A DNA stretch of 38,891 nucleotides from positions 1 to 38,891 of IMG/VR virus record IMGVR_UViG_2576861092_000011; one strand, given 5' to 3'. The notes beneath the pieces were generated by a model. That model was not told where the DNA came from, ran no database searches, and saw only the letters and a program-made list of their open reading frames with translations. Below are positions 1-38,891 of this stretch, in pieces. The position numbers and the translations under genes were made by a program. Positions within the stretch are counted from its first letter, which is position 1. Every line of letters starts with the position of its first letter. The stretch comes from a virus (taxonomy: Duplodnaviria > Heunggongvirae > Uroviricota > Caudoviricetes).

Positions 1-1158
1 ATGCTCACCGTTAAGCAGATTGAAGCAGCTAAGCCGAAAGAAAAACCATACCGCCTTCTCGATGGTAATGGCCTGTACCTTTATGTCCCTGTATCCGGGA
101 AAAAGGTATGGCAGCTTCGCTACAAGATTGACGGTAAGGAGAAAATCCTGACCGTCGGAAAATATCCGCTTATGACTTTGCAGGAAGCAAGGGATAAAGC
201 ATGGACCGCGAGGAAAGACATCTCGGTTGGCATCGATCCGGTAAAGGCGAAAAAGGCTTCGTCTAACAACAATTCATTTAGTGCGATTTACAAGGAATGG
301 TACGAGCACAAGAAGCAAGTCTGGTCAGTAGGCTATGCAACTGAACTTGCAAAAATGTTTGATGCCGACATTTTACCTATCATCGGCGGCCTTGAAATTC
401 AGGATATTGAGCCGATGCAACTGCTGGAAGTAATCCGCAGATTTGAAGATCGCGGTGCAATGGAGCGAGCCAACAAAGCCCGCAGAAGATGCGGCGAGGT
501 TTTCCGTTACGCTATTGTCACTGGTAGGGCTAAATATAACCCGGCACCTGACCTTGCTGACGCCATGAAGGGATACCGCAAGAAGAACTTCCCGTTTTTA
601 CCTGCCGACCAGATCTCGGCATTCAACAAAGCACTTGCAACATTTTCAGGAAGTATCGTATCGCTCATTGCCACCAAGGTTTTACGCTACACTGCCCTAA
701 GAACGAAAGAGCTTCGTTCCATGCTATGGAAGAACGTCGATTTTGAAAACAGGATTATCACCATCGACGCCAGTGTGATGAAGGGACGCAAAATTCATGT
801 GGTCCCGATGTCAGACCAGGTGGTTGAACTTCTCACTACGCTAAGCTCAATCACCAAACCAGTCTCAGAGTTTGTTTTTGCCGGGCGCAACGATAAGAAG
901 AAGCCAATCTGCGAGAACGCGGTATTGCTTGTGATCAAACAAATCGGCTATGAAGGTCTGGAAAGCGGTCACGGATTCAGGCATGAATTCAGCACGATTA
1001 TGAACGAGCACGAATGGCCTGCCGACGCCATTGAAGTGCAACTGGCACATGCCAACGGCGGTTCTGTACGTGGAATTTACAACCATGCTCAGTATCTCGA
1101 TAAGCGCAGAGAAATGATGCAGTGGTGGGCGGACTGGCTTGATGAAAAGGGGGAGTAA
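1..1158 (+). CDS. intS: P4-type tyrosine integrase (prophage integrase), 385 aa
   Basis: Full-length ORF. N-terminus MLTVKQIEAAKPKEKPYRLLDGNGLYLYV is typical of P4-family integrases; C-terminal HGFRHEF and IYNHAQY carry the catalytic H-x-x-R and Tyr. Matches my recollection of E. coli K-12 KplE1 IntS. Window begins at its ATG. Confidence 0.9.
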   Translation: MLTVKQIEAAKPKEKPYRLLDGNGLYLYVPVSGKKVWQLRYKIDGKEKILTVGKYPLMTLQEARDKAWTARKDISVGIDPVKAKKASSNNNSFSAIYKEWYEHKKQVWSVGYATELAKMFDADILPIIGGLEIQDIEPMQLLEVIRRFEDRGAMERANKARRRCGEVFRYAIVTGRAKYNPAPDLADAMKGYRKKNFPFLPADQISAFNKALATFSGSIVSLIATKVLRYTALRTKELRSMLWKNVDFENRIITIDASVMKGRKIHVVPMSDQVVELLTTLSSITKPVSEFVFAGRNDKKKPICENAVLLVIKQIGYEGLESGHGFRHEFSTIMNEHEWPADAIEVQLAHANGGSVRGIYNHAQYLDKRREMMQWWADWLDEKGE

Positions 1159-1348: not shown

Positions 1349-2416
1349 ATGAAACATATACAATCTTTAGATGGTGTGAGAGGTATTGCGGTGCTCATTG
1401 TAATGCTTTTTCATGCCAAAGTTTCAGGATTTTCTCTTGGTTGGTCTGGAGTTCCGCTGTTCTTTTGCTTATCTGGTTTCTTAATTACCTCAATCCTTAT
1501 CGAGGATAAAGACTCTGGTTTTAGTAACTATATTAAACGATTTCTTATAAATAGATCGCTTAGAATATTCCCGTTATTTTATGCTTACCTACTTGTTAAC
1601 TTTATTCTTCTAATTGCAACTGGGAAACCAACGGATGGTTATTTGTGGTTTATAACTTATCTACAAAACTATTATATAGGAATAAATGTTACAACACCTG
1701 GAATTTTGGGGCACACCTGGTCTCTTGCAGTGGAAGAACAATTTTACTGGCTTTGGCCTCTATTCATATTTTTCATAAACAAAAAGAATATGAATCTGAT
1801 TTTTATCATACTAATAATAACATCAAGTATATCAAGATATTTTATATTTCAAATCACTGATGGAAACCCATACATTGTAAATGTAACTCTTATCAGTTGC
1901 ATTGACATGTTAGTTCTTGGTGCTCTGTTTTCAAAGATAAAAGATGATAAGTACGCATATGAATCAGGATTTTTAACTTTTATAGCAGGTGTTGGGCTGG
2001 TTCTTAATGGAATAAATTCTGTTGGTCTTAATGCTTTTTGGAACCCTGTAGATTGGGCTGGGAAATGCTGGTATATGTTTACAGCGTTTGGGATGATTTT
2101 TTCATCTGCAATTTTTTTCATTTACAAGTGGAGTGTGCTAGGGAAAAAACAAATAATAACAAAAGCATTATCATTAAAGCCATTAACATTTACAGGAAAG
2201 ATAAGTTATGGTTTGTATATGTGGCATTTGCTGTGTTTTTCAATTGCAAACAAAATGTCCTCCTTGTTTGGGGTAAACAATAATGCTGTGATAATAGCAT
2301 GTGGGTTTGCTATCGCATATATAGTATCAATTGCATCATACTATCTTTTTGAAATACATTTTCTTAAATTAAAAAGAAAAACCAATAGAAATGAAGACAA
2401 TTTAGTTACAGTATAA
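1349..2416 (+). CDS. oac: Acyltransferase-3 family integral membrane protein, probable O-antigen O-acetyltransferase (lysogenic conversion)
   Basis: 355 aa, multi-pass hydrophobic; N-terminal motif LDGVRGIAVLIVMLFH typical of OafA/Oac acyltransferases. Markedly AT-rich versus flanking phage DNA. Sits between int and tailspike as in Sf6. Confidence 0.8.
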   Translation: MKHIQSLDGVRGIAVLIVMLFHAKVSGFSLGWSGVPLFFCLSGFLITSILIEDKDSGFSNYIKRFLINRSLRIFPLFYAYLLVNFILLIATGKPTDGYLWFITYLQNYYIGINVTTPGILGHTWSLAVEEQFYWLWPLFIFFINKKNMNLIFIILIITSSISRYFIFQITDGNPYIVNVTLISCIDMLVLGALFSKIKDDKYAYESGFLTFIAGVGLVLNGINSVGLNAFWNPVDWAGKCWYMFTAFGMIFSSAIFFIYKWSVLGKKQIITKALSLKPLTFTGKISYGLYMWHLLCFSIANKMSSLFGVNNNAVIIACGFAIAYIVSIASYYLFEIHFLKLKRKTNRNEDNLVTV

Positions 2417-2447
2417 AAATAGGGCGGGGAAACCGCCCTATTTTTAT
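2416..2447. terminator. Bidirectional Rho-independent terminator between convergent oac and tailspike
   Basis: Stem AGGGCGG / CCGCCCT with loop GGAAA, flanked by an A-run on one side and a T-run on the other (aaaat-agggcggggaaaccgcccta-tttttat). Confidence 0.75.
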
Positions 2448-4159
2448 CTATCCTCTCTCCACGCCTGCACGAAACATGTAACATTGATGTTTGATACTCC
2501 ATTTCCTGTGGTTGTATCATACACTCGAGCAATGGCAGTTCCACTGCTATGGTAAGTGTCAAAGCTCACTGCGTACTTGAATGGTGATGGCATAGTATTG
2601 GAGTGAAAATCTGGAACCGCCATTGCATATCTTGCATAGAATCCAAAGTTAATTATGTCTCCAGATTTTAAAGTAAGAATGTTTGTATAGTTAGGGGAGT
2701 TTGATATCTTCTCGTCAACACGTATTAGCCTCCCATTACCTTGGATAGTAATTACTGTGAATATTCGATTTGGATCATTGAGATAAACAACAGCTTCATC
2801 ACTGATAATTAGGTGACCTATTGTGCCATCGTCGTTGTAGATTTGAGGGTCGTTTATACGTACTACAGCGTTACCCCTAACCCGGAACAGGTAGGCATTT
2901 GCCCCTGCAGCGTTAACCCTGTTGAATGTCGGGGAGTTAAATGTAACCTCAGAACTAGAGGCGACCACGATAGCCTGGCTTCCTGCTGTAATTTTCCCGT
3001 TTGCAACGTCCATTTCGAAGTTAGGTTGATTAAATATGATTCCTCTTGAGTTCGTATCTATCTGCAGGAAATAAGCATTGGCGGACCCGTTATGTCCCAT
3101 GTTAAGCGCGTTGAATATCTGGTTGCTAGCGCCAGAAACTTTCACGGCATAAGCCGTCCAGTTTGCAACATAACACCCATTGAACACGTTTTGAATAATT
3201 GTTCCGTTACTGGATAGGTTAATCCCGATTCGGTTGTTATTGCACCTCATATTGTTATAAATATTTGAAAAATCAGCATATCCAGCGTTGTAACCAATAT
3301 CAAAGAAATCGAGATAAAGGTTGTTAAACTCACAGTTAACTGCCTTTCCGCAAAAAGACATGTCTATTCCGACCCCGCTACCAACAGGAGGACCGCCAGC
3401 AACAGATCCGTTAACTTGGAGATTCATGTTTGATATAGTAATCCCTCTAACGTCAGAGCCCTCAGGCTTTATTCCGATCGTGTTTATAGGAACGTTAACA
3501 ACTGTTGATGTTATGGATTCACCAGTTATGCTAGTTTTATTTTTTAACTCAAAATTACCGCTCCATACTCCATTAGGCACCTTCAGTAGACCATTGGCCT
3601 CACCTGTGGCAACGGCAATGTTGACAGGGTTTACGTTTTCATTTGTCGCCCCGTAACCACGGATATCACCAATTCTCTGATAGTCATCAACAGATATAAA
3701 ATCATGCACTGTCCTTCCATCGGTAATGCCAACCATGGAAGAACCTATTGATGATGCAAGACGCTGCTCAAGCTGATCCGGGTCGTACTTCAGTACATTC
3801 GGAAAATAAAACTGCTGCGCACCGTACGCATCATAAACAGCCATAGAATGGCCTTGCACGGTAACGAATTTGGCAATCTGTCCATTATATACAGGGTAAC
3901 CAGCAGCGTTAATGATGATTGGTTGCGAAACAGGAACGTGAGAGCCGTCTTCGCTCTCCATATAAACCTGAATCTGGTTTTCAGGATTTACCGGATCAGT
4001 GTCAATTTTTCCTATATAAATTTTGCCATTGGCAACCGCTTTAAAAGAACGTGCCATAGTGAAGAGTTGCGAAGGCATGCTTACCACAACATTTGCAGTG
4101 ATATCTGACATTTCATTGCTCCAGACGAATGATATGATGCAACCATGATGTGATTGCAT
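2444..4159 (-). CDS. Tailspike protein: P22 gp9-like N-terminal head-binding domain plus distinct beta-helix receptor-binding/O-antigen-depolymerase domain
   Basis: N-terminal ~110 aa ([46 protein letters not shown]...[15 protein letters not shown]...NVLKYDPDQ) closely matches the P22 gp9 head-binding domain; the rest is Asn/Gly/Ser-rich repetitive sequence typical of right-handed beta-helix. 3' part is AT-rich. Confidence 0.9.
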
Positions 4160-24288: not shown

Positions 24289-24457
24289 CGTCTTCTTCCT
24301 CGTACATTGAGCTATTCGGATCGCTCATCAGTTCTGCGCAGCAGTGCTCACACACGTGAACTTCCAGCACATGCAGCTTCTTACCGCAGTTAGCGCACGT
24401 TAAAGCCCGCTCGACGCTTTCTTTCTGGTATTGAAGGGATTGGGATGGGCTAAGCAT
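24281..24457 (-). CDS. ninF: NinF-like small protein (58 aa)
   Basis: Not in ORF track (<60 aa); translation [58 protein letters not shown]; stop overlaps ninG start. Confidence 0.7.
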
Positions 24458-24839
24458 TATTGGCGTCCTGCATCATGAGAAAGACAATCATGGCGGCACG
24501 GAGTGGATTGTCATATGCGACACCAACATTCGGTCCGGCATCATCAAGCAAGTCCCTTGCGTTGTCTGTAGCGCACGGCATTGAGGGATTGTCTAAAATT
24601 ATGCTGATGTTGTTTTCAGTGATAATCGGCCATGCGTCTGCTGGGTTTGCGCATGGGTTAAAGGATCCGCGCTCAACCTCTACTTCAACTGCGTCTCCGT
24701 TTACAATGTCTCCCTCAAATGAGATAAACACCATCGCGCCATTCTCACCTTCTTTGTAATCCGGTGATCCGTTATGAATGGCTTCGAATACCGCCACGTT
24801 AATTTCAAAATCACTTAACTGTGAATAATCCATTGTCAT
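24450..24839 (-). CDS. nin-region protein of unknown function (NinX position)
   Basis: 129 aa from [20 protein letters not shown]; ATGA overlap with upstream gene stop; positional analogue of P22 ninX. Confidence 0.55.
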
Positions 24840-25012
24840 TTCCTCGCACGATGTCTTAGCCACCGGATATCCCACAGGTGAGCCGTGTAGTTGAAGGTTT
24901 TTACGTCAGATTCTTTTGGGATTGGCTTGGGTTTATTTCTGGAGCGTTTCGTTGGAAGGTATTTGCAGTTTTCGCAGATGATGTCGGTGATGCTTCGTCG
25001 CTGTCGCCTCAT
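24836..25012 (-). CDS. ninE: NinE-like small basic protein (58 aa)
   Basis: [58 protein letters not shown]; Arg-rich with KP.KP and WLR..ARK features I associate with NinE-family proteins. Confidence 0.55.
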
Positions 25013-25536
25013 GCTGCCCTCCTGACGCCCTGCCCGATCGCCATCAATGCCGCTTTGGATACAGTAGTAAACATCCGTCGAGGACTGATGAACGGTCGCC
25101 AAATCAGCAGCATTGAGCCTTTGCTGTTTCCCTTCTTCTCCAGCCCTGTCGATGGTTCGATAAAATTAATCCGTCCATCAGTGATGATGCGAACTTCGTC
25201 AACACTCTCCAGAGCCTTGTTGAACCATCCGACTGACATATCCTCTGGCACAAGCATCACTACCGTCTGTCGCTGTTGTATGCACTGCTCAGCGGCTTTT
25301 TCCACCCACGGCCTGATATTGCTGTACGGTGGGTTATTCCAGATTGCCCCGTGGCTTATCCACTCAGAATTTAGCGCGTCGTCGGCCTCAGTTAACCAGT
25401 GAGCGCACAGAGCATTTTTGTCGCTCGCTGCCGAATCCAGCCAGAATCCAAACTCAATATCCAGTGCATCAAAAAGCCAAAGCGGCGTTTGCCAGCAGTC
25501 CTTGTCGTGTGCTGGCGTATTTGATTTGATAGTCAT
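25009..25536 (-). CDS. Orphan DNA N6-adenine methyltransferase (phage Dam family)
   Basis: 175 aa from [22 protein letters not shown]; catalytic NPPY motif (WNNPPYSN); ATGA overlap with ninB stop; no adjacent restriction gene. Confidence 0.8.
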
Positions 25537-25973
25537 GCTGCCCGATCTCCCCATCGCGCTTTCCATTCGAGAGCCAGTCGCGCTTCGTCTGACCACTTAA
25601 CGCCACGTTCTGTACCGAATGCCTGTATAAGCTCTAATAGCTCCGCAAATTCGCTTACACGCATCCTGCTGGTTGACTGGCCTATTACCACAAAGCCATT
25701 CCCGGCAAGGTTAGGAACAACGTCCTGCTGCTTTAATGCTGCTGTAAACACACACTTCCAGCTTTCTGCATCCAGCCAGCGCCCATGCCATTCAACCTGA
25801 CGAGAGACGTCACCAAGGCAAGCCCAAAGCTTTCGATTCTGGTCTAAGCTGCGGTTGCGTTCCTGAATGGTTACTACGATTGGTTTGGTTGGGTCTGGAA
25901 GAATTTGCTGTACTGCGTGAATAGCGTTTTGCTGATGTGCTGGAGATCGAATTTCAAAGGTTAGTTTTTTCAT
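25533..25973 (-). CDS. ninB: NinB-like recombination protein (Orf)
   Basis: 146 aa from MKKLTFEIRSPAHQQNAIHAVQQILPDPTKPIVVTIQERNRSLDQNRKLWA, matching recalled lambda NinB. Confidence 0.85.
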   Translation of the reverse strand: MKKLTFEIRSPAHQQNAIHAVQQILPDPTKPIVVTIQERNRSLDQNRKLWACLGDVSRQVEWHGRWLDAESWKCVFTAALKQQDVVPNLAGNGFVVIGQSTSRMRVSEFAELLELIQAFGTERGVKWSDEARLALEWKARWGDRAA

Positions 25974-26049
25974 GACTTCCCTCTCCCCCAAATAAAAAGG
26001 CCTGCGATTACCAGCAGGCCTGTTATTAGCTCAGTGATGTGGATGGTCA

Positions 26050-33980: not shown

Positions 33981-34157
33981 CAAAGAGGAATTAATCATGA
34001 GAGGACTTGCTTACAATCCCGGCATTCTTCCGGCAGAAATGATTATTCGCCAACGCGTAAAGCCAATGCCATCGAGAGAGGAATTACTTAAGAGAAATTC
34101 TTTTCCTTCAGTGAATCAAAACAAATATCTGAATGCGATGTGGCGGAGTGGGAAGAA

Positions 34158-34589
34158 ATGAAACAAATGTCACTAATTGAGATGGATGGTTTTCTGAAAG
34201 GTAAATGCATCCCACGAGATTTAAAGGTTAACGAAACAAACGCTGAATATCTGGTGCGTAAATTTGCTGAAGCGGAGTCCAAGTGCGCGGCGCTGGCGGC
34301 GGAGAATGCGGGGCTGAAGTCTGGCGCTATGGACGAAATCAAGGTTATCAACCGTGGAGGTCAGGCATATTGCGTAAAAGATGGAGTGCGAGTTAATCCC
34401 ATGTATGCAAGAGGGTGGAATGACTATCGCGCAAAGTCTCTGCAATCAGACACCCCAGCCACCGATGCTTTCCTGGCTGAAATTCGTGCACAGGGGGTTG
34501 AGATGTTTGCTGACAATCTGTTGTGTCCAGACCTTGATGGCACTATCCGTGACTTTGCTGCCCAGCTTCGCAAAGGAGGCAACCAGTGA
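34158..34589 (+). CDS. Hypothetical protein (143 aa)
   Basis: ORF in early-left operon; start set at ATG 34158 (ATGA overlap with a possible 54-aa upstream micro-ORF at 33997..34161). Confidence 0.5.
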
Positions 34590-35230
34590 GTAACCGTTTT
34601 TACATGATGTGCTTGCGTGAAACTGTGGGTAATAACGCCTCATTCCATTGCCATAACGGCAATGGTTACAGTTCTGATATCGATCGCGCTCATGTTTACA
34701 CGCTGGAAGAAGCCCAAAAAGCCTGGAATTGTGGGCGAGATATCGATCAGCCTGTTTGCGCTGATAGCGTGGATGCAATGGCAGTGTGGCACGTTGATTG
34801 CCAGTACATCCCTACAGAAAGCCTGATTGAGTCAGATTGCACTGCGTATGTGGCCTACAAAAAAGGTAGCTGGAACGGCAACGATGTTTACTGGCTTCAA
34901 CACGGTGGATTGCCAACAGATGACTTCAGTAAAGCGACCATCTTTAGCGTCGCCAACAAAAACGAACCAGGAATAGTTTGGTTGCCATTTTCCATTGCTG
35001 ATGCAGCAAAGCGCAGGACGTTCAATATCAATAACTTTAACCGCAGAACAATGGTTCAGGGCGCAGGTTTGGTCATGCCTGACTGGTTGAAAGAGCAGAA
35101 CAGAAGAAAGAAGTCGCGAAGCGGGAAGGTGCGTTGGAATTGTCCGCATTGCGGAAAAATCTCCTGGCAGTACAGCCCATATGATTTTGAAGGCTGTAGT
35201 GATTACAACTGTGAAGGATGGCGAGAATGA
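34586..35230 (+). CDS. Hypothetical Cys-rich protein (214 aa) with C-terminal zinc-ribbon-like CxxC...C..C
   Basis: GTG start with AGGAGG RBS; C-terminus ..WNCPHCGKISWQYSPYDFEGCSDYNCEGW.. Confidence 0.5.
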   Translation: MSNRFYMMCLRETVGNNASFHCHNGNGYSSDIDRAHVYTLEEAQKAWNCGRDIDQPVCADSVDAMAVWHVDCQYIPTESLIESDCTAYVAYKKGSWNGNDVYWLQHGGLPTDDFSKATIFSVANKNEPGIVWLPFSIADAAKRRTFNINNFNRRTMVQGAGLVMPDWLKEQNRRKKSRSGKVRWNCPHCGKISWQYSPYDFEGCSDYNCEGWRE

Positions 35231-35830: not shown

Positions 35831-36631
35831 ATGACCATCCACTTTCACGGCAGCCCAATATGGGGTGATGAGCATGCCCATACAGATATGCTGATTAAAG
35901 CCCTTTACCGTGATGGTGGGGCTTTTGTTTCATTTGCCAGACCAGAGCAGATGAAAAAGATTGCCATGTTCCCTTGTGATATACGCCTTGATAACGGTGC
36001 TTTTAGCGACTGGATGAAAGCATTAAAGAAAGGCACTCCGGTAGACTGGAGTAAGAGACGAGCAAAATTCTACGACTTTGTTGGGAAGTGGTTCAGCAGA
36101 ATTGAATGGTTTCTTATACCTGACGTTATCGAAGGGACAGAGGCAGAAAACGACGAGCAGATTGAGTTGGTTCCTGATTGGCTAAAATCAAAAGCGGTTC
36201 CGGTCTGGCATACCGACGAATCAATTGAACGTCTTTTACGCCTTTCTGGCAAATTTGAATGGGTGGCGATTGGATGCTGCGGCCCACACAGGCACATACG
36301 CTCTAAATGGTGGGAACAGAGAATGGATGAAGTTTTCACTGAGCTTTATATCAATCGTAATTTGAAAGTGAAAATTCATGGTCTTCGAATGCTCGACGTG
36401 AGAGTTCTTGGTATGTATCCGTTCGCCAGTGCGGATTCTACTAATGTTGCTGTTAACGTACCGAAGACAGAGAAGCGATTTCCTGAGATTACCGACAAAC
36501 TGGCACGTACAGCTGTACTTCGCGCTGCTATTGAAAAGGTGCACCCGCCATCGATATCAGCATGGGTAGACAGAAAGATGAGAGAGCCGGCGCAAGCCGG
36601 TTTTTTATTTGAATTCACCGACGCCGCTTAA
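35831..36631 (+). CDS. Hypothetical protein (266 aa), function unknown
   Basis: Good RBS (GGGGA); largest unassigned early-left ORF; no confident family recognised by eye. Confidence 0.55.
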   Translation: MTIHFHGSPIWGDEHAHTDMLIKALYRDGGAFVSFARPEQMKKIAMFPCDIRLDNGAFSDWMKALKKGTPVDWSKRRAKFYDFVGKWFSRIEWFLIPDVIEGTEAENDEQIELVPDWLKSKAVPVWHTDESIERLLRLSGKFEWVAIGCCGPHRHIRSKWWEQRMDEVFTELYINRNLKVKIHGLRMLDVRVLGMYPFASADSTNVAVNVPKTEKRFPEITDKLARTAVLRAAIEKVHPPSISAWVDRKMREPAQAGFLFEFTDAA

Positions 36632-37643: not shown

Positions 37644-38891
37644 CTATATTGCTGAAGGTACAGGCGTTTCCATAACTATTTGCTCGCGTTTTTTACTCAA
37701 GAAGAAAATGCCAAATAGCAACATCAGGCAGACAATACCCGAAATTGCGAAGAAAACTGTCTGGTAGCCTGCGTGGTCAAAGAGTATCCCAGTCGGCGTT
37801 GAAAGCAGCACAATCCCAAGCGAACTGGCAATTTGAAAACCAATCAGAAAGATCGTCGACGACAGGCGCTTATCAAAGTTTGCCACGCTGTATTTGAAGA
37901 CGGATATGACACAAAGTGGAACCTCAATGGCATGTAACAACTTCACTAATGAAATAATCCAGGGGTTAACGAACAGCGCGCAGGAAAGGATACGCAACGC
38001 CATAATCACAACTCCGATAAGTAATGCATTTTTTGGCCCTACCCGATTCACAAAGAAAGGAATAATCGCCATGCACAGCGCTTCGAGTACCACCTGGAAT
38101 GAGTTGAGATAACCATACAGGCGCGTTCCTACATCGTGTGATTCGAATAAACCTGCATAAAAGACAGGAAAAAGTTGTTGATCAAAAATGTTATAGAAAG
38201 ACCACGTCCCCACAATAAATATGACGAAAACCCAGAAGTTTCGATCCTTGAAAACTGCGATAAAATCCTCTTTTTTTACCCCTCCCGCATCTGCCGCTAC
38301 GCACTGGTGATCCTTATCTTTAAAACGCATGTTGATCATCATAAATACAGCGCCAAATAGCGAGACCAACCAGAAGTTGATATGGGGACTGATACTAAAA
38401 AATATGCCGGCAAAGAACGCGCCAATAGCATAGCCAAAAGATCCCCAGGCGCGCGCTGTTCCATATTCGAAATGAAAATTTCGCGCCATTTTTTCGGTGA
38501 AGCTATCAAGCAAACCGCATCCCGCCAGATACCCCAAGCCAAAAAATAGCGCCCCCAGAATTAGACCTACAGAAAAATTGCTTTGCAGTAACGGTTCATA
38601 AACGTAAATCATAAACGGTCCGGTCAAGACCAGGATGAAACTCATACACCAGATGAGCGGTTTCTTCAGACCGAGTTTATCCTGAACGATGCCGTAGAAC
38701 ATCATAAATAGAATGCTGGTAAACTGGTTGACCGAATAAAGTGTACCTAATTCCGTCCCTGTCAACCCTAGATGTCCTTTCAGCCAAATAGCGTATAACG
38801 ACCACCACAGCGACCAGGAAATAAAAAAGAGAAATGAGTAACTGGATGCAAAACGATAGTACGCATTTCTGAATGGAATATTCAGTGCCAT
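37644..38891 (-). CDS. cscB: Sucrose:H+ symporter (LacY-family oligosaccharide permease), host gene
   Basis: 415 aa, 12-TM MFS pattern; matches my recollection of E. coli CscB (MALNIPFRNAYYRFASSYSFLFFISWSLWWSLYAIWLKG...). Window ends at its start codon. Confidence 0.85.
   Translation of the reverse strand: MALNIPFRNAYYRFASSYSFLFFISWSLWWSLYAIWLKGHLGLTGTELGTLYSVNQFTSILFMMFYGIVQDKLGLKKPLIWCMSFILVLTGPFMIYVYEPLLQSNFSVGLILGALFFGLGYLAGCGLLDSFTEKMARNFHFEYGTARAWGSFGYAIGAFFAGIFFSISPHINFWLVSLFGAVFMMINMRFKDKDHQCVAADAGGVKKEDFIAVFKDRNFWVFVIFIVGTWSFYNIFDQQLFPVFYAGLFESHDVGTRLYGYLNSFQVVLEALCMAIIPFFVNRVGPKNALLIGVVIMALRILSCALFVNPWIISLVKLLHAIEVPLCVISVFKYSVANFDKRLSSTIFLIGFQIASSLGIVLLSTPTGILFDHAGYQTVFFAISGIVCLMLLFGIFFLSKKREQIVMETPVPSAI

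Follow-up and report, generated by a model that had tools for sequence, protein, structure and literature searches.

The window analysed here, that is, the whole 38,891-nucleotide stretch of DNA (positions 1 to 38,891 of IMG/VR virus record IMGVR_UViG_2576861092_000011), is a P22-like prophage whose early region resembles that of lambda; the prophage adjoins host cscB. Within its nin region lies dam (25009..25536, minus strand), which, judged by its sequence, is an ordinary orphan adenine methyltransferase gene of lambdoid phages, already known and an allele of M.EcoVT2Dam. We consider it very probable that the encoded enzyme methylates GATC, is produced as a delayed-early function of lytic growth and supplements a host Dam that has become limiting; in this proposal, the GATC specificity is drawn from the literature, whereas we infer the timing of expression and the biological pay-off. 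The gene, the elements that define it and an antisense frame are as follows.

25009..25536, minus strand: dam, 175-amino-acid orphan phage N6-adenine DNA methyltransferase of the M.EcoVT2Dam type (PF05869/TIGR01712)
25324..25335, minus strand: catalytic motif IV, N68-P69-P70-Y71 (codons AAC CCA CCG TAC), read from the sequence
25533..25536, minus strand: ATGA junction, with the dam start codon overlapping the ninB stop codon (translational coupling), read from the sequence
25009..25012, minus strand: ATGA junction, with the ninE start codon overlapping the dam stop codon, read from the sequence
24878..25402, plus strand: antisense open reading frame (ORF) of 174 amino acids

Two family profiles match the protein over their full length and with scores far beyond chance: PF05869 ('Dam') with 217.9 bits (cut-off 28.1; residues 4–169 on profile positions 1–167 of 169) and the equivalog TIGR01712 ('phage N-6-adenine-methyltransferase') with 262.8 bits (cut-off 97.05; residues 2–168 on profile positions 1–165 of 165). 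The protein also matches PHROG 111, and its top PADLOC models are those for 'orphan methyltransferase'. In an alignment of 68 homologues with 59–86% identity (alignment A2), the columns of N68-P69-P70-Y71 are invariant, and D34 and A36 (in L33-D-S-A-A-S38) as well as T17-P18 (in W15-Q-T-P18) vary little or not at all. Conserved positions are also present in a hairpin at residues 121–140, namely G121, R122, F125, N137, K139 and G140. An earlier note on this DNA had read positions 25009–25536 as an N6-adenine methyltransferase with an NPPY motif, and the family profiles together with the invariant motif confirm this assignment, on the minus strand.

The dam frame runs on the minus strand from ATG 25536 to TGA 25009 and encodes 175 amino acids. 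We take ATG 25536 to be the true start because the profiles begin at residue 2–4 and the abundant homologues are 175 amino acids long; for the same reasons GTG 25596, the start given in a mechanical list of ORFs, was rejected. The antisense ORF at 24878..25402 was set aside as a gene, given that dam and ninE fully account for the coding strand. As a separate observation at the downstream junction, database proteins of 233–235 amino acids (P0001, which stands for 41 member sequences, and P0023) join a Dam domain to a NinE domain, and probably arose either through loss of the dam stop codon at the ATGA junction or through gene-calling across it.

The name Dam calls for some care. The earlier note had placed the protein in the 'Dam family', which holds in so far as the Pfam family is named 'Dam', but the name does not denote homology to the host enzyme: the Pfam profile search gave the protein no match to PF02086 (that is, the family of host-type Dam), and on sequence criteria it is not homologous to host Dam at the family level. 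E. coli Dam, T4 Dam and DpnM are alpha-class enzymes of PF02086 that have an inserted DNA-recognition domain, whereas the window's protein is a lone catalytic domain without a separate target-recognition domain, as is the norm for its family (~165–185 amino acids). A sequence search of solved structures returned nothing significant (best E-value 0.14, to unrelated proteins), and no relative is known to have a solved structure. The fold is nearer to that of gamma-class enzymes; the tabulated figures of a methyltransferase comparison were 10.3 for PCIF1, 9.5 for M.TaqI, 9.1 for M.BseCI, 8.9 for MmeI and 8.6 for CamA, with lower figures for Type I HsdM subunits (about 8), EcoDam (8.1), T4 Dam (7.2) and DpnM (7.0).

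The closest characterized relative is M.EcoVT2Dam of the Shiga toxin (Stx) 2 phage VT2-Sakai (BAA94133), to which the window's protein is identical at 173 of 175 residues (99%). The sole differences, the conservative I60V and N106S, fall outside the invariant or near-invariant (≥90%) positions of alignment A2. The two genes share their length of 175 codons for amino acids, the position between ninB and ninE, the ATGA junctions and 98.3% nucleotide identity, but they differ in context: VT2-Sakai is an Stx2 phage with the VT2 allele of ninB, whereas the window, a P22-like podovirus prophage, lacks stx and has the lambda allele of ninB. The same dam gene is present in Phi24B, Min27, HK97, SfI and mEp213, and a close homologue in 933W. 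More distant are the Dam proteins of phage T1 and Haemophilus phage HP1, to which (as HP1 Orf13 and T1 M.T1) the VT2-Sakai record notes similarity; they share the PF05869/TIGR01712 families, the small size and the lack of a target-recognition domain, but only distant sequence identity (30–35% between the window's protein and its matches in T1-like phages), and they occur in other genomic contexts (T1 is virulent and HP1 is P2-like).

The gene is widespread. Its exact 175-amino-acid product is already in NCBI as 'phage N-6-adenine-methyltransferase', and at 95–99% nucleotide identity dam occurs in 244 phage records (including mEp213, SfI, VT2-Sakai, Min27 and many Stx phages), in which the ninB and ninE flanks are the same as in the window. 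Among complete E. coli genomes, 1566 of 5426 (about 29%) carry it, in up to five places per genome; more distant relatives were found in 1862 of 50,697 phage records, and the family comprises 8814 representatives at the 50% identity level.

Near-identity to the characterized M.EcoVT2Dam makes the target of the window's enzyme assignable. According to PMC6602927, M.EcoVT2Dam 'is known to target 5'-GATC-3'' and GATC is predicted for 99%-identical copies, with reference to Radlinska & Bujnicki 2001. We therefore make a strong, sequence-derived prediction that the window's enzyme forms N6-methyladenine at GATC in an S-adenosylmethionine (SAM)-dependent manner. The statement of the earlier note that target specificity cannot be read from the sequence remains correct for the catalytic motif taken by itself, but is superseded by the 173 of 175 residues shared with an enzyme that PMC6602927 reports as specific for GATC.

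A relaxed or different specificity (for example, non-specific adenine methylation) would in principle be plausible for an enzyme that lacks a target-recognition domain, and non-specific phage adenine methyltransferases are indeed known from phages of E. coli and Serratia (PMC7556043; PMC6602927 Table 3). These enzymes (that is, the M.EcoGI/GII type, phiP27 NP_543076 and Serratia PhiOS31_p25) are, like the window's protein, orphan N6-adenine methyltransferases carried by temperate phages of enterobacteria, but they are proteins of about 350 amino acids that belong to PF01555 (N6_N4_Mtase) and are encoded downstream of Q, close to stx and lysis genes. We rejected them as members of the same family; a BLASTP comparison with phiP27 NP_543076 found no significant similarity and aligned only the region of the PPY tripeptide (E = 0.15). 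Hia5-type enzymes were likewise rejected, as they are of a different class. Given also that strains with two copies yielded no extra adenine motif attributed to the enzyme, and that the 99%-identical M.EcoVT2Dam is reported to be GATC-specific (PMC6602927), we regard a departure from GATC specificity as most improbable.

This assignment bears on how activity could be judged. A comparison of the methylomes of a lysogen and a cured strain, as the earlier note had recommended, would add no new motif in a dam+ host because E. coli Dam already methylates GATC; the outcome 'no new methylated motif' is thus unable to refute activity of the phage enzyme in such a host, and would be a false refutation.

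Past the replication genes, the gene order of the window is ninB, dam, ninE, ninX, ninF, ninG, ninH, phosphatase and Q, with ninG about 0.7 kb downstream of dam. The immediate neighbours and the terminator upstream of them are as follows.

25998..26021, minus strand: strong intrinsic terminator just upstream of ninB, with an 8-bp stem (6 GC pairs) and a T tract
25533..25973, minus strand: ninB (orf), recombination mediator of the lambda-type allele, 146 amino acids from ATG 25973 (PF05772, 184 bits)
24836..25012, minus strand: ninE (PF05322, 148.6 bits), conserved in the window, VT2-Sakai and lambda
24450..24839, minus strand: ninX-family gene, ATGA-coupled to ninE (PF10765, 60.2 bits)

No restriction gene is present among the neighbours of dam (NinB, NinE, NinX, NinF, NinG, NinH, phosphatase and Q), and no cognate endonuclease gene lies next to it, which places dam outside the Type II restriction-modification systems. 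A scan of unknown ORFs of the prophage against Pfam, PHROGs, NCBIfam and PADLOC, which fell short of covering every ORF of the window, likewise found no restriction or defence partner. The orphan status that the earlier note had proposed is borne out within that coverage, the neighbours being non-nuclease genes.

The position of dam is best understood as the product of mosaic exchange at a polymorphic slot. In lambda the order is ninB-ninC-ninD-ninE, and dam sits at the position of ninC and ninD; the lambda pair (ninC being PAPS-reductase-like) has the same insertion point between the ninB stop and the ninE start and likewise overlaps start and stop codons, but its proteins are unrelated to that of dam. 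Aligned with VT2-Sakai and lambda, the window carries ninB in its lambda form (almost identical) and not in the divergent form of VT2-Sakai, dam in its VT2 form, and a ninE that all three share; the switches between mosaic segments coincide exactly with the ninB stop and the ninE start. Among 80 IMG/VR loci with a lambda-type ninB, classified by what lies between ninB and ninE, the slot held dam in 38, was empty in 32 (ninE following 0 or 18 bp after ninB), held ninD alone in 6 and ninC-ninD in 3, and was truncated in 1. Thus dam is the commonest occupant of the ninB-ninE slot and no unusual replacement. Moreover, dam and ninC coexist in the order ninB-dam-ninC-ninE in E. coli ST540 (L003 1628..3607; hits H74 and H75). 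The description of dam as 'replacing ninC/ninD' therefore applies relative to lambda, but not to a slot that is this polymorphic and in which dam and ninC can stand together. Similarly, the tight ATGA coupling to ninB is real but marks no special tie between the two genes: the ATGA at the ninB stop is also present in VT2-Sakai and lambda, and such overlaps are found in nin regions generally (PMC8022706).

The terminator at 25998..26021 is identical to the corresponding lambda sequence in the aligned stretch, and we take it to be lambda tR2. A crude consensus scan, which weak promoters may escape, found nothing resembling a promoter upstream of dam or ninB, its two hits both falling inside ninX; no terminator was found after dam. 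Because the gene has no apparent promoter of its own, lies downstream of the tR2-like terminator and is embedded in the tightly packed nin operon, we place it in the delayed-early class; it looks like part of an antitermination-dependent delayed-early transcript, that is, like a mosaic cassette set within an operon, and not like an autonomous moron. The term 'moron', which the earlier note had applied, is hence not appropriate for a gene that has neither a recognizable promoter nor a terminator of its own, is flanked by ATGA overlaps at both ends and follows a lambda tR2-like terminator upstream of ninB.

On this basis, the following course can be envisioned. During lytic growth, and not in the quiescent lysogen, dam would be transcribed from pR in the delayed-early phase, once N-type antitermination has carried transcription through the tR2-like terminator, and its translation would be coupled from ninB and into ninE. 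The product, a minimal single-domain SAM-dependent enzyme, would methylate N6 of adenine in GATC and thereby supplement a host Dam that may become limiting during fast phage replication, such that progeny DNA could be fully GATC-methylated before packaging. Full methylation may guard the DNA against GATC nucleases (that is, MboI/DpnII-type restriction, and MutH acting on un- or hemimethylated sites) both in the current cell and in the next host, and the phage would be freed from dependence on host Dam. Supplementation of host Dam is our favoured reading because Dam leaves the GATC sites of P22 and lambda virion DNA under-methylated, 'possibly because replication outstrips modification' (PMC8022706), and because endogenous Dam is rate-limiting for high-copy DNA, phage Dams being viewed as anti-restriction functions (bioRxiv 10.1101/2020.06.22.160242). 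In Phi24B, whose dam is of identical length, expression changed significantly on prophage induction (PMC3342100).

Several points weigh against this proposal. The GATC specificity traces to one 2001 paper, cited through secondary sources, and is carried over to the window's allele by similarity. Workers on these enzymes state that the function of phage Dam 'is still not well understood' (PMC7556043), and, as E. coli already has Dam, the benefit in the usual host is not obvious. GATC methylation also has costs, namely sensitivity to DpnI-type nucleases and the triggering of retron-Sen2-type toxin-antitoxin systems (bioRxiv 10.1101/2020.06.22.160242). Phages with dam show no relaxed avoidance of GATC, as detailed below. 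Finally, an antiserum that had been raised against lysogen cultures recognized Phi24B Dam (PMC3342100), which may reflect some expression in the prophage state or spontaneous induction.

The antiserum result speaks for an alternative in which dam would be an epigenetic moron, made in the lysogen and adding to host GATC methylation so as to stabilize lysogeny or alter host expression. The authors of PMC3342100 also suggested that Dam may supplement the host Dam that is needed for stable 933W lysogeny, and up to five copies of dam occur in a single E. coli genome. However, the host already methylates GATC, the arrangement of the locus (nothing promoter-like ahead of dam or ninB in the scan, a tR2-like terminator upstream and ATGA at both ends) speaks against it, and the change of Phi24B expression with induction means that the signal in lysogen cultures may come from spontaneously induced cells. 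We thus hold expression for the sake of the lysogen to be unlikely.

A further alternative retains lytic expression but shifts the benefit from resistance to restriction towards methyl-directed mismatch repair, which the phage would disable or evade during replication and recombination: rapid full methylation would stop nicking by MutH and let diverged mosaic partners recombine. MutH has been held responsible for the avoidance of GATC in enterophages, and overproduction of Dam suppresses incision by MutH. In agreement with this, dam sits among recombination genes (ninB/orf and ninG/rap) and the phage region is about two-fold depleted of GATC; the window has 90 GATC sites as compared with 193 expected under a second-order Markov model (observed/expected 0.47), and GATC and CTAG (11 sites, 0.27) are its most under-represented 4-bp palindromes, with GGCC at 0.49. 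Yet adjacency is weak evidence, given the mosaic gene order of nin regions and a slot that in many loci is empty or taken up by unrelated genes, and the depletion is equal with and without dam. Among 55 loci of at least 12 kb that share a lambda-type ninB, the median observed/expected ratio of GATC was 0.51 in the 22 with dam and 0.51 in the 33 without it (Mann-Whitney p = 0.78), although the comparison is weak, mosaic exchange being fast and the loci not independent. As a main benefit, interference with mismatch repair appears to us possible but rather doubtful.

Lastly, the gene could be a selectively neutral passenger or an inactive remnant spread by mosaic exchange of the nin region. As 32 of 80 related loci have nothing in the slot, dam is dispensable, and the host has its own Dam. 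Nevertheless, the ORF is intact with all invariant residues of the family, it is 95–99% conserved over 244 phage records and 1566 E. coli genomes within a family of 8814 representatives at 50% identity, and the near-identical VT2 enzyme has been reported to be active; neutrality or inactivity is consequently hard to credit.

The remainder of the prophage provides context for dam, with the following features beyond the nin region.

1..1158: tyrosine integrase
1349..2416: Acyl_transf_3 family gene
2444..4159: tailspike, with a Pfam match only to the P22 head-binding domain
34140..34589, plus strand: ORF of the early left operon, 149 amino acids (PHROG 614, unknown function)
34586..35230, plus strand: ORF of the early left operon, 214 amino acids (PHROG 2457, unknown function)
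35831..36631, plus strand: DpdA-like guanine transglycosylase of 266 amino acids at the distal end of the leftward early operon (PHROG 887, 'queuine tRNA-ribosyltransferase')
37644..38891: host cscB, a sucrose transporter of the LacY family, at the end of the window

The Acyl_transf_3 gene is probably an O-antigen acetylase, that is, a serotype-conversion moron, and upstream of it there is no GATC cluster of the Dam/OxyR type known from P22 gtrABC but a lone GATC at 1211. Neither of the ORFs at 34140..34589 and 34586..35230 has a match in Pfam, NCBIfam or PADLOC.

The DpdA-like gene is of interest as a second candidate for DNA modification in the same prophage. Its ORF has no match in Pfam, NCBIfam, PADLOC or the sequences of the PDB, and its DNA is 98.4% identical to a gene of phage HK106. 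Supplementary Data 1 of Hutinet et al. 2019 lists HK106 and SfI as phages with DpdA only; the ORF is therefore already catalogued. In four independent contigs (L085 6001..7383, and also L086–L088), a DpdA-like part that is 76% identical to this ORF forms the N terminus of a 460-amino-acid fusion protein (P0285), the C-terminal PF05869 domain of which is 49% identical to the window's Dam. The fusion gene directly follows, with a 4-nt overlap, a gene of the Vut_1/YhhQ type (the family of preQ0 transporters), and a second fusion of DpdA-like and Dam domains is found at L124 9983..11701. Across 80 DpdA-like loci, a Vut_1/YhhQ-type gene on the same strand within about 0.6 kb was present in 14, and a Dam domain within 10 kb in only 4 (fused in one of them). 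We therefore rejected an association of Dam with DpdA as a general rule and retained that of occasional fusion. The fusions hint that, in the window, the small Dam might cooperate with the DpdA-like enzyme about 10 kb away; phage DNA would then bear two layers of modification, possibly on adjacent bases because some phage DpdA enzymes act at GA (PMC10484667) and Dam acts at GATC, but we deem such cooperation very unlikely.

Fusions of PF05869 to other enzymes were also encountered. The domain is joined to a C5-cytosine DNA methylase (PF00145) in P0137, P0139, P0147 and P0242 and to a PAPS-reductase/NinC-like domain in P0195; in P0140, P0157, P0152 and P0162, the partner regions beside the Dam domain have no Pfam match. 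Fusions to DNA-modifying enzymes fit a role of the family in DNA modification and anti-restriction. The fusion in P0195, to a domain from the family of lambda NinC (which occupies the same nin slot), may hint that NinC is also involved in DNA modification.

In summary, little is at stake for this window itself, as dam is a textbook accessory gene of lambdoid phages that NCBI annotates under this name, and the value of the present analysis is chiefly corrective: the GATC target can be assigned, dam is neither a moron nor a special partner of ninB, and a methylome check in a dam+ host would produce a false 'refutation'.
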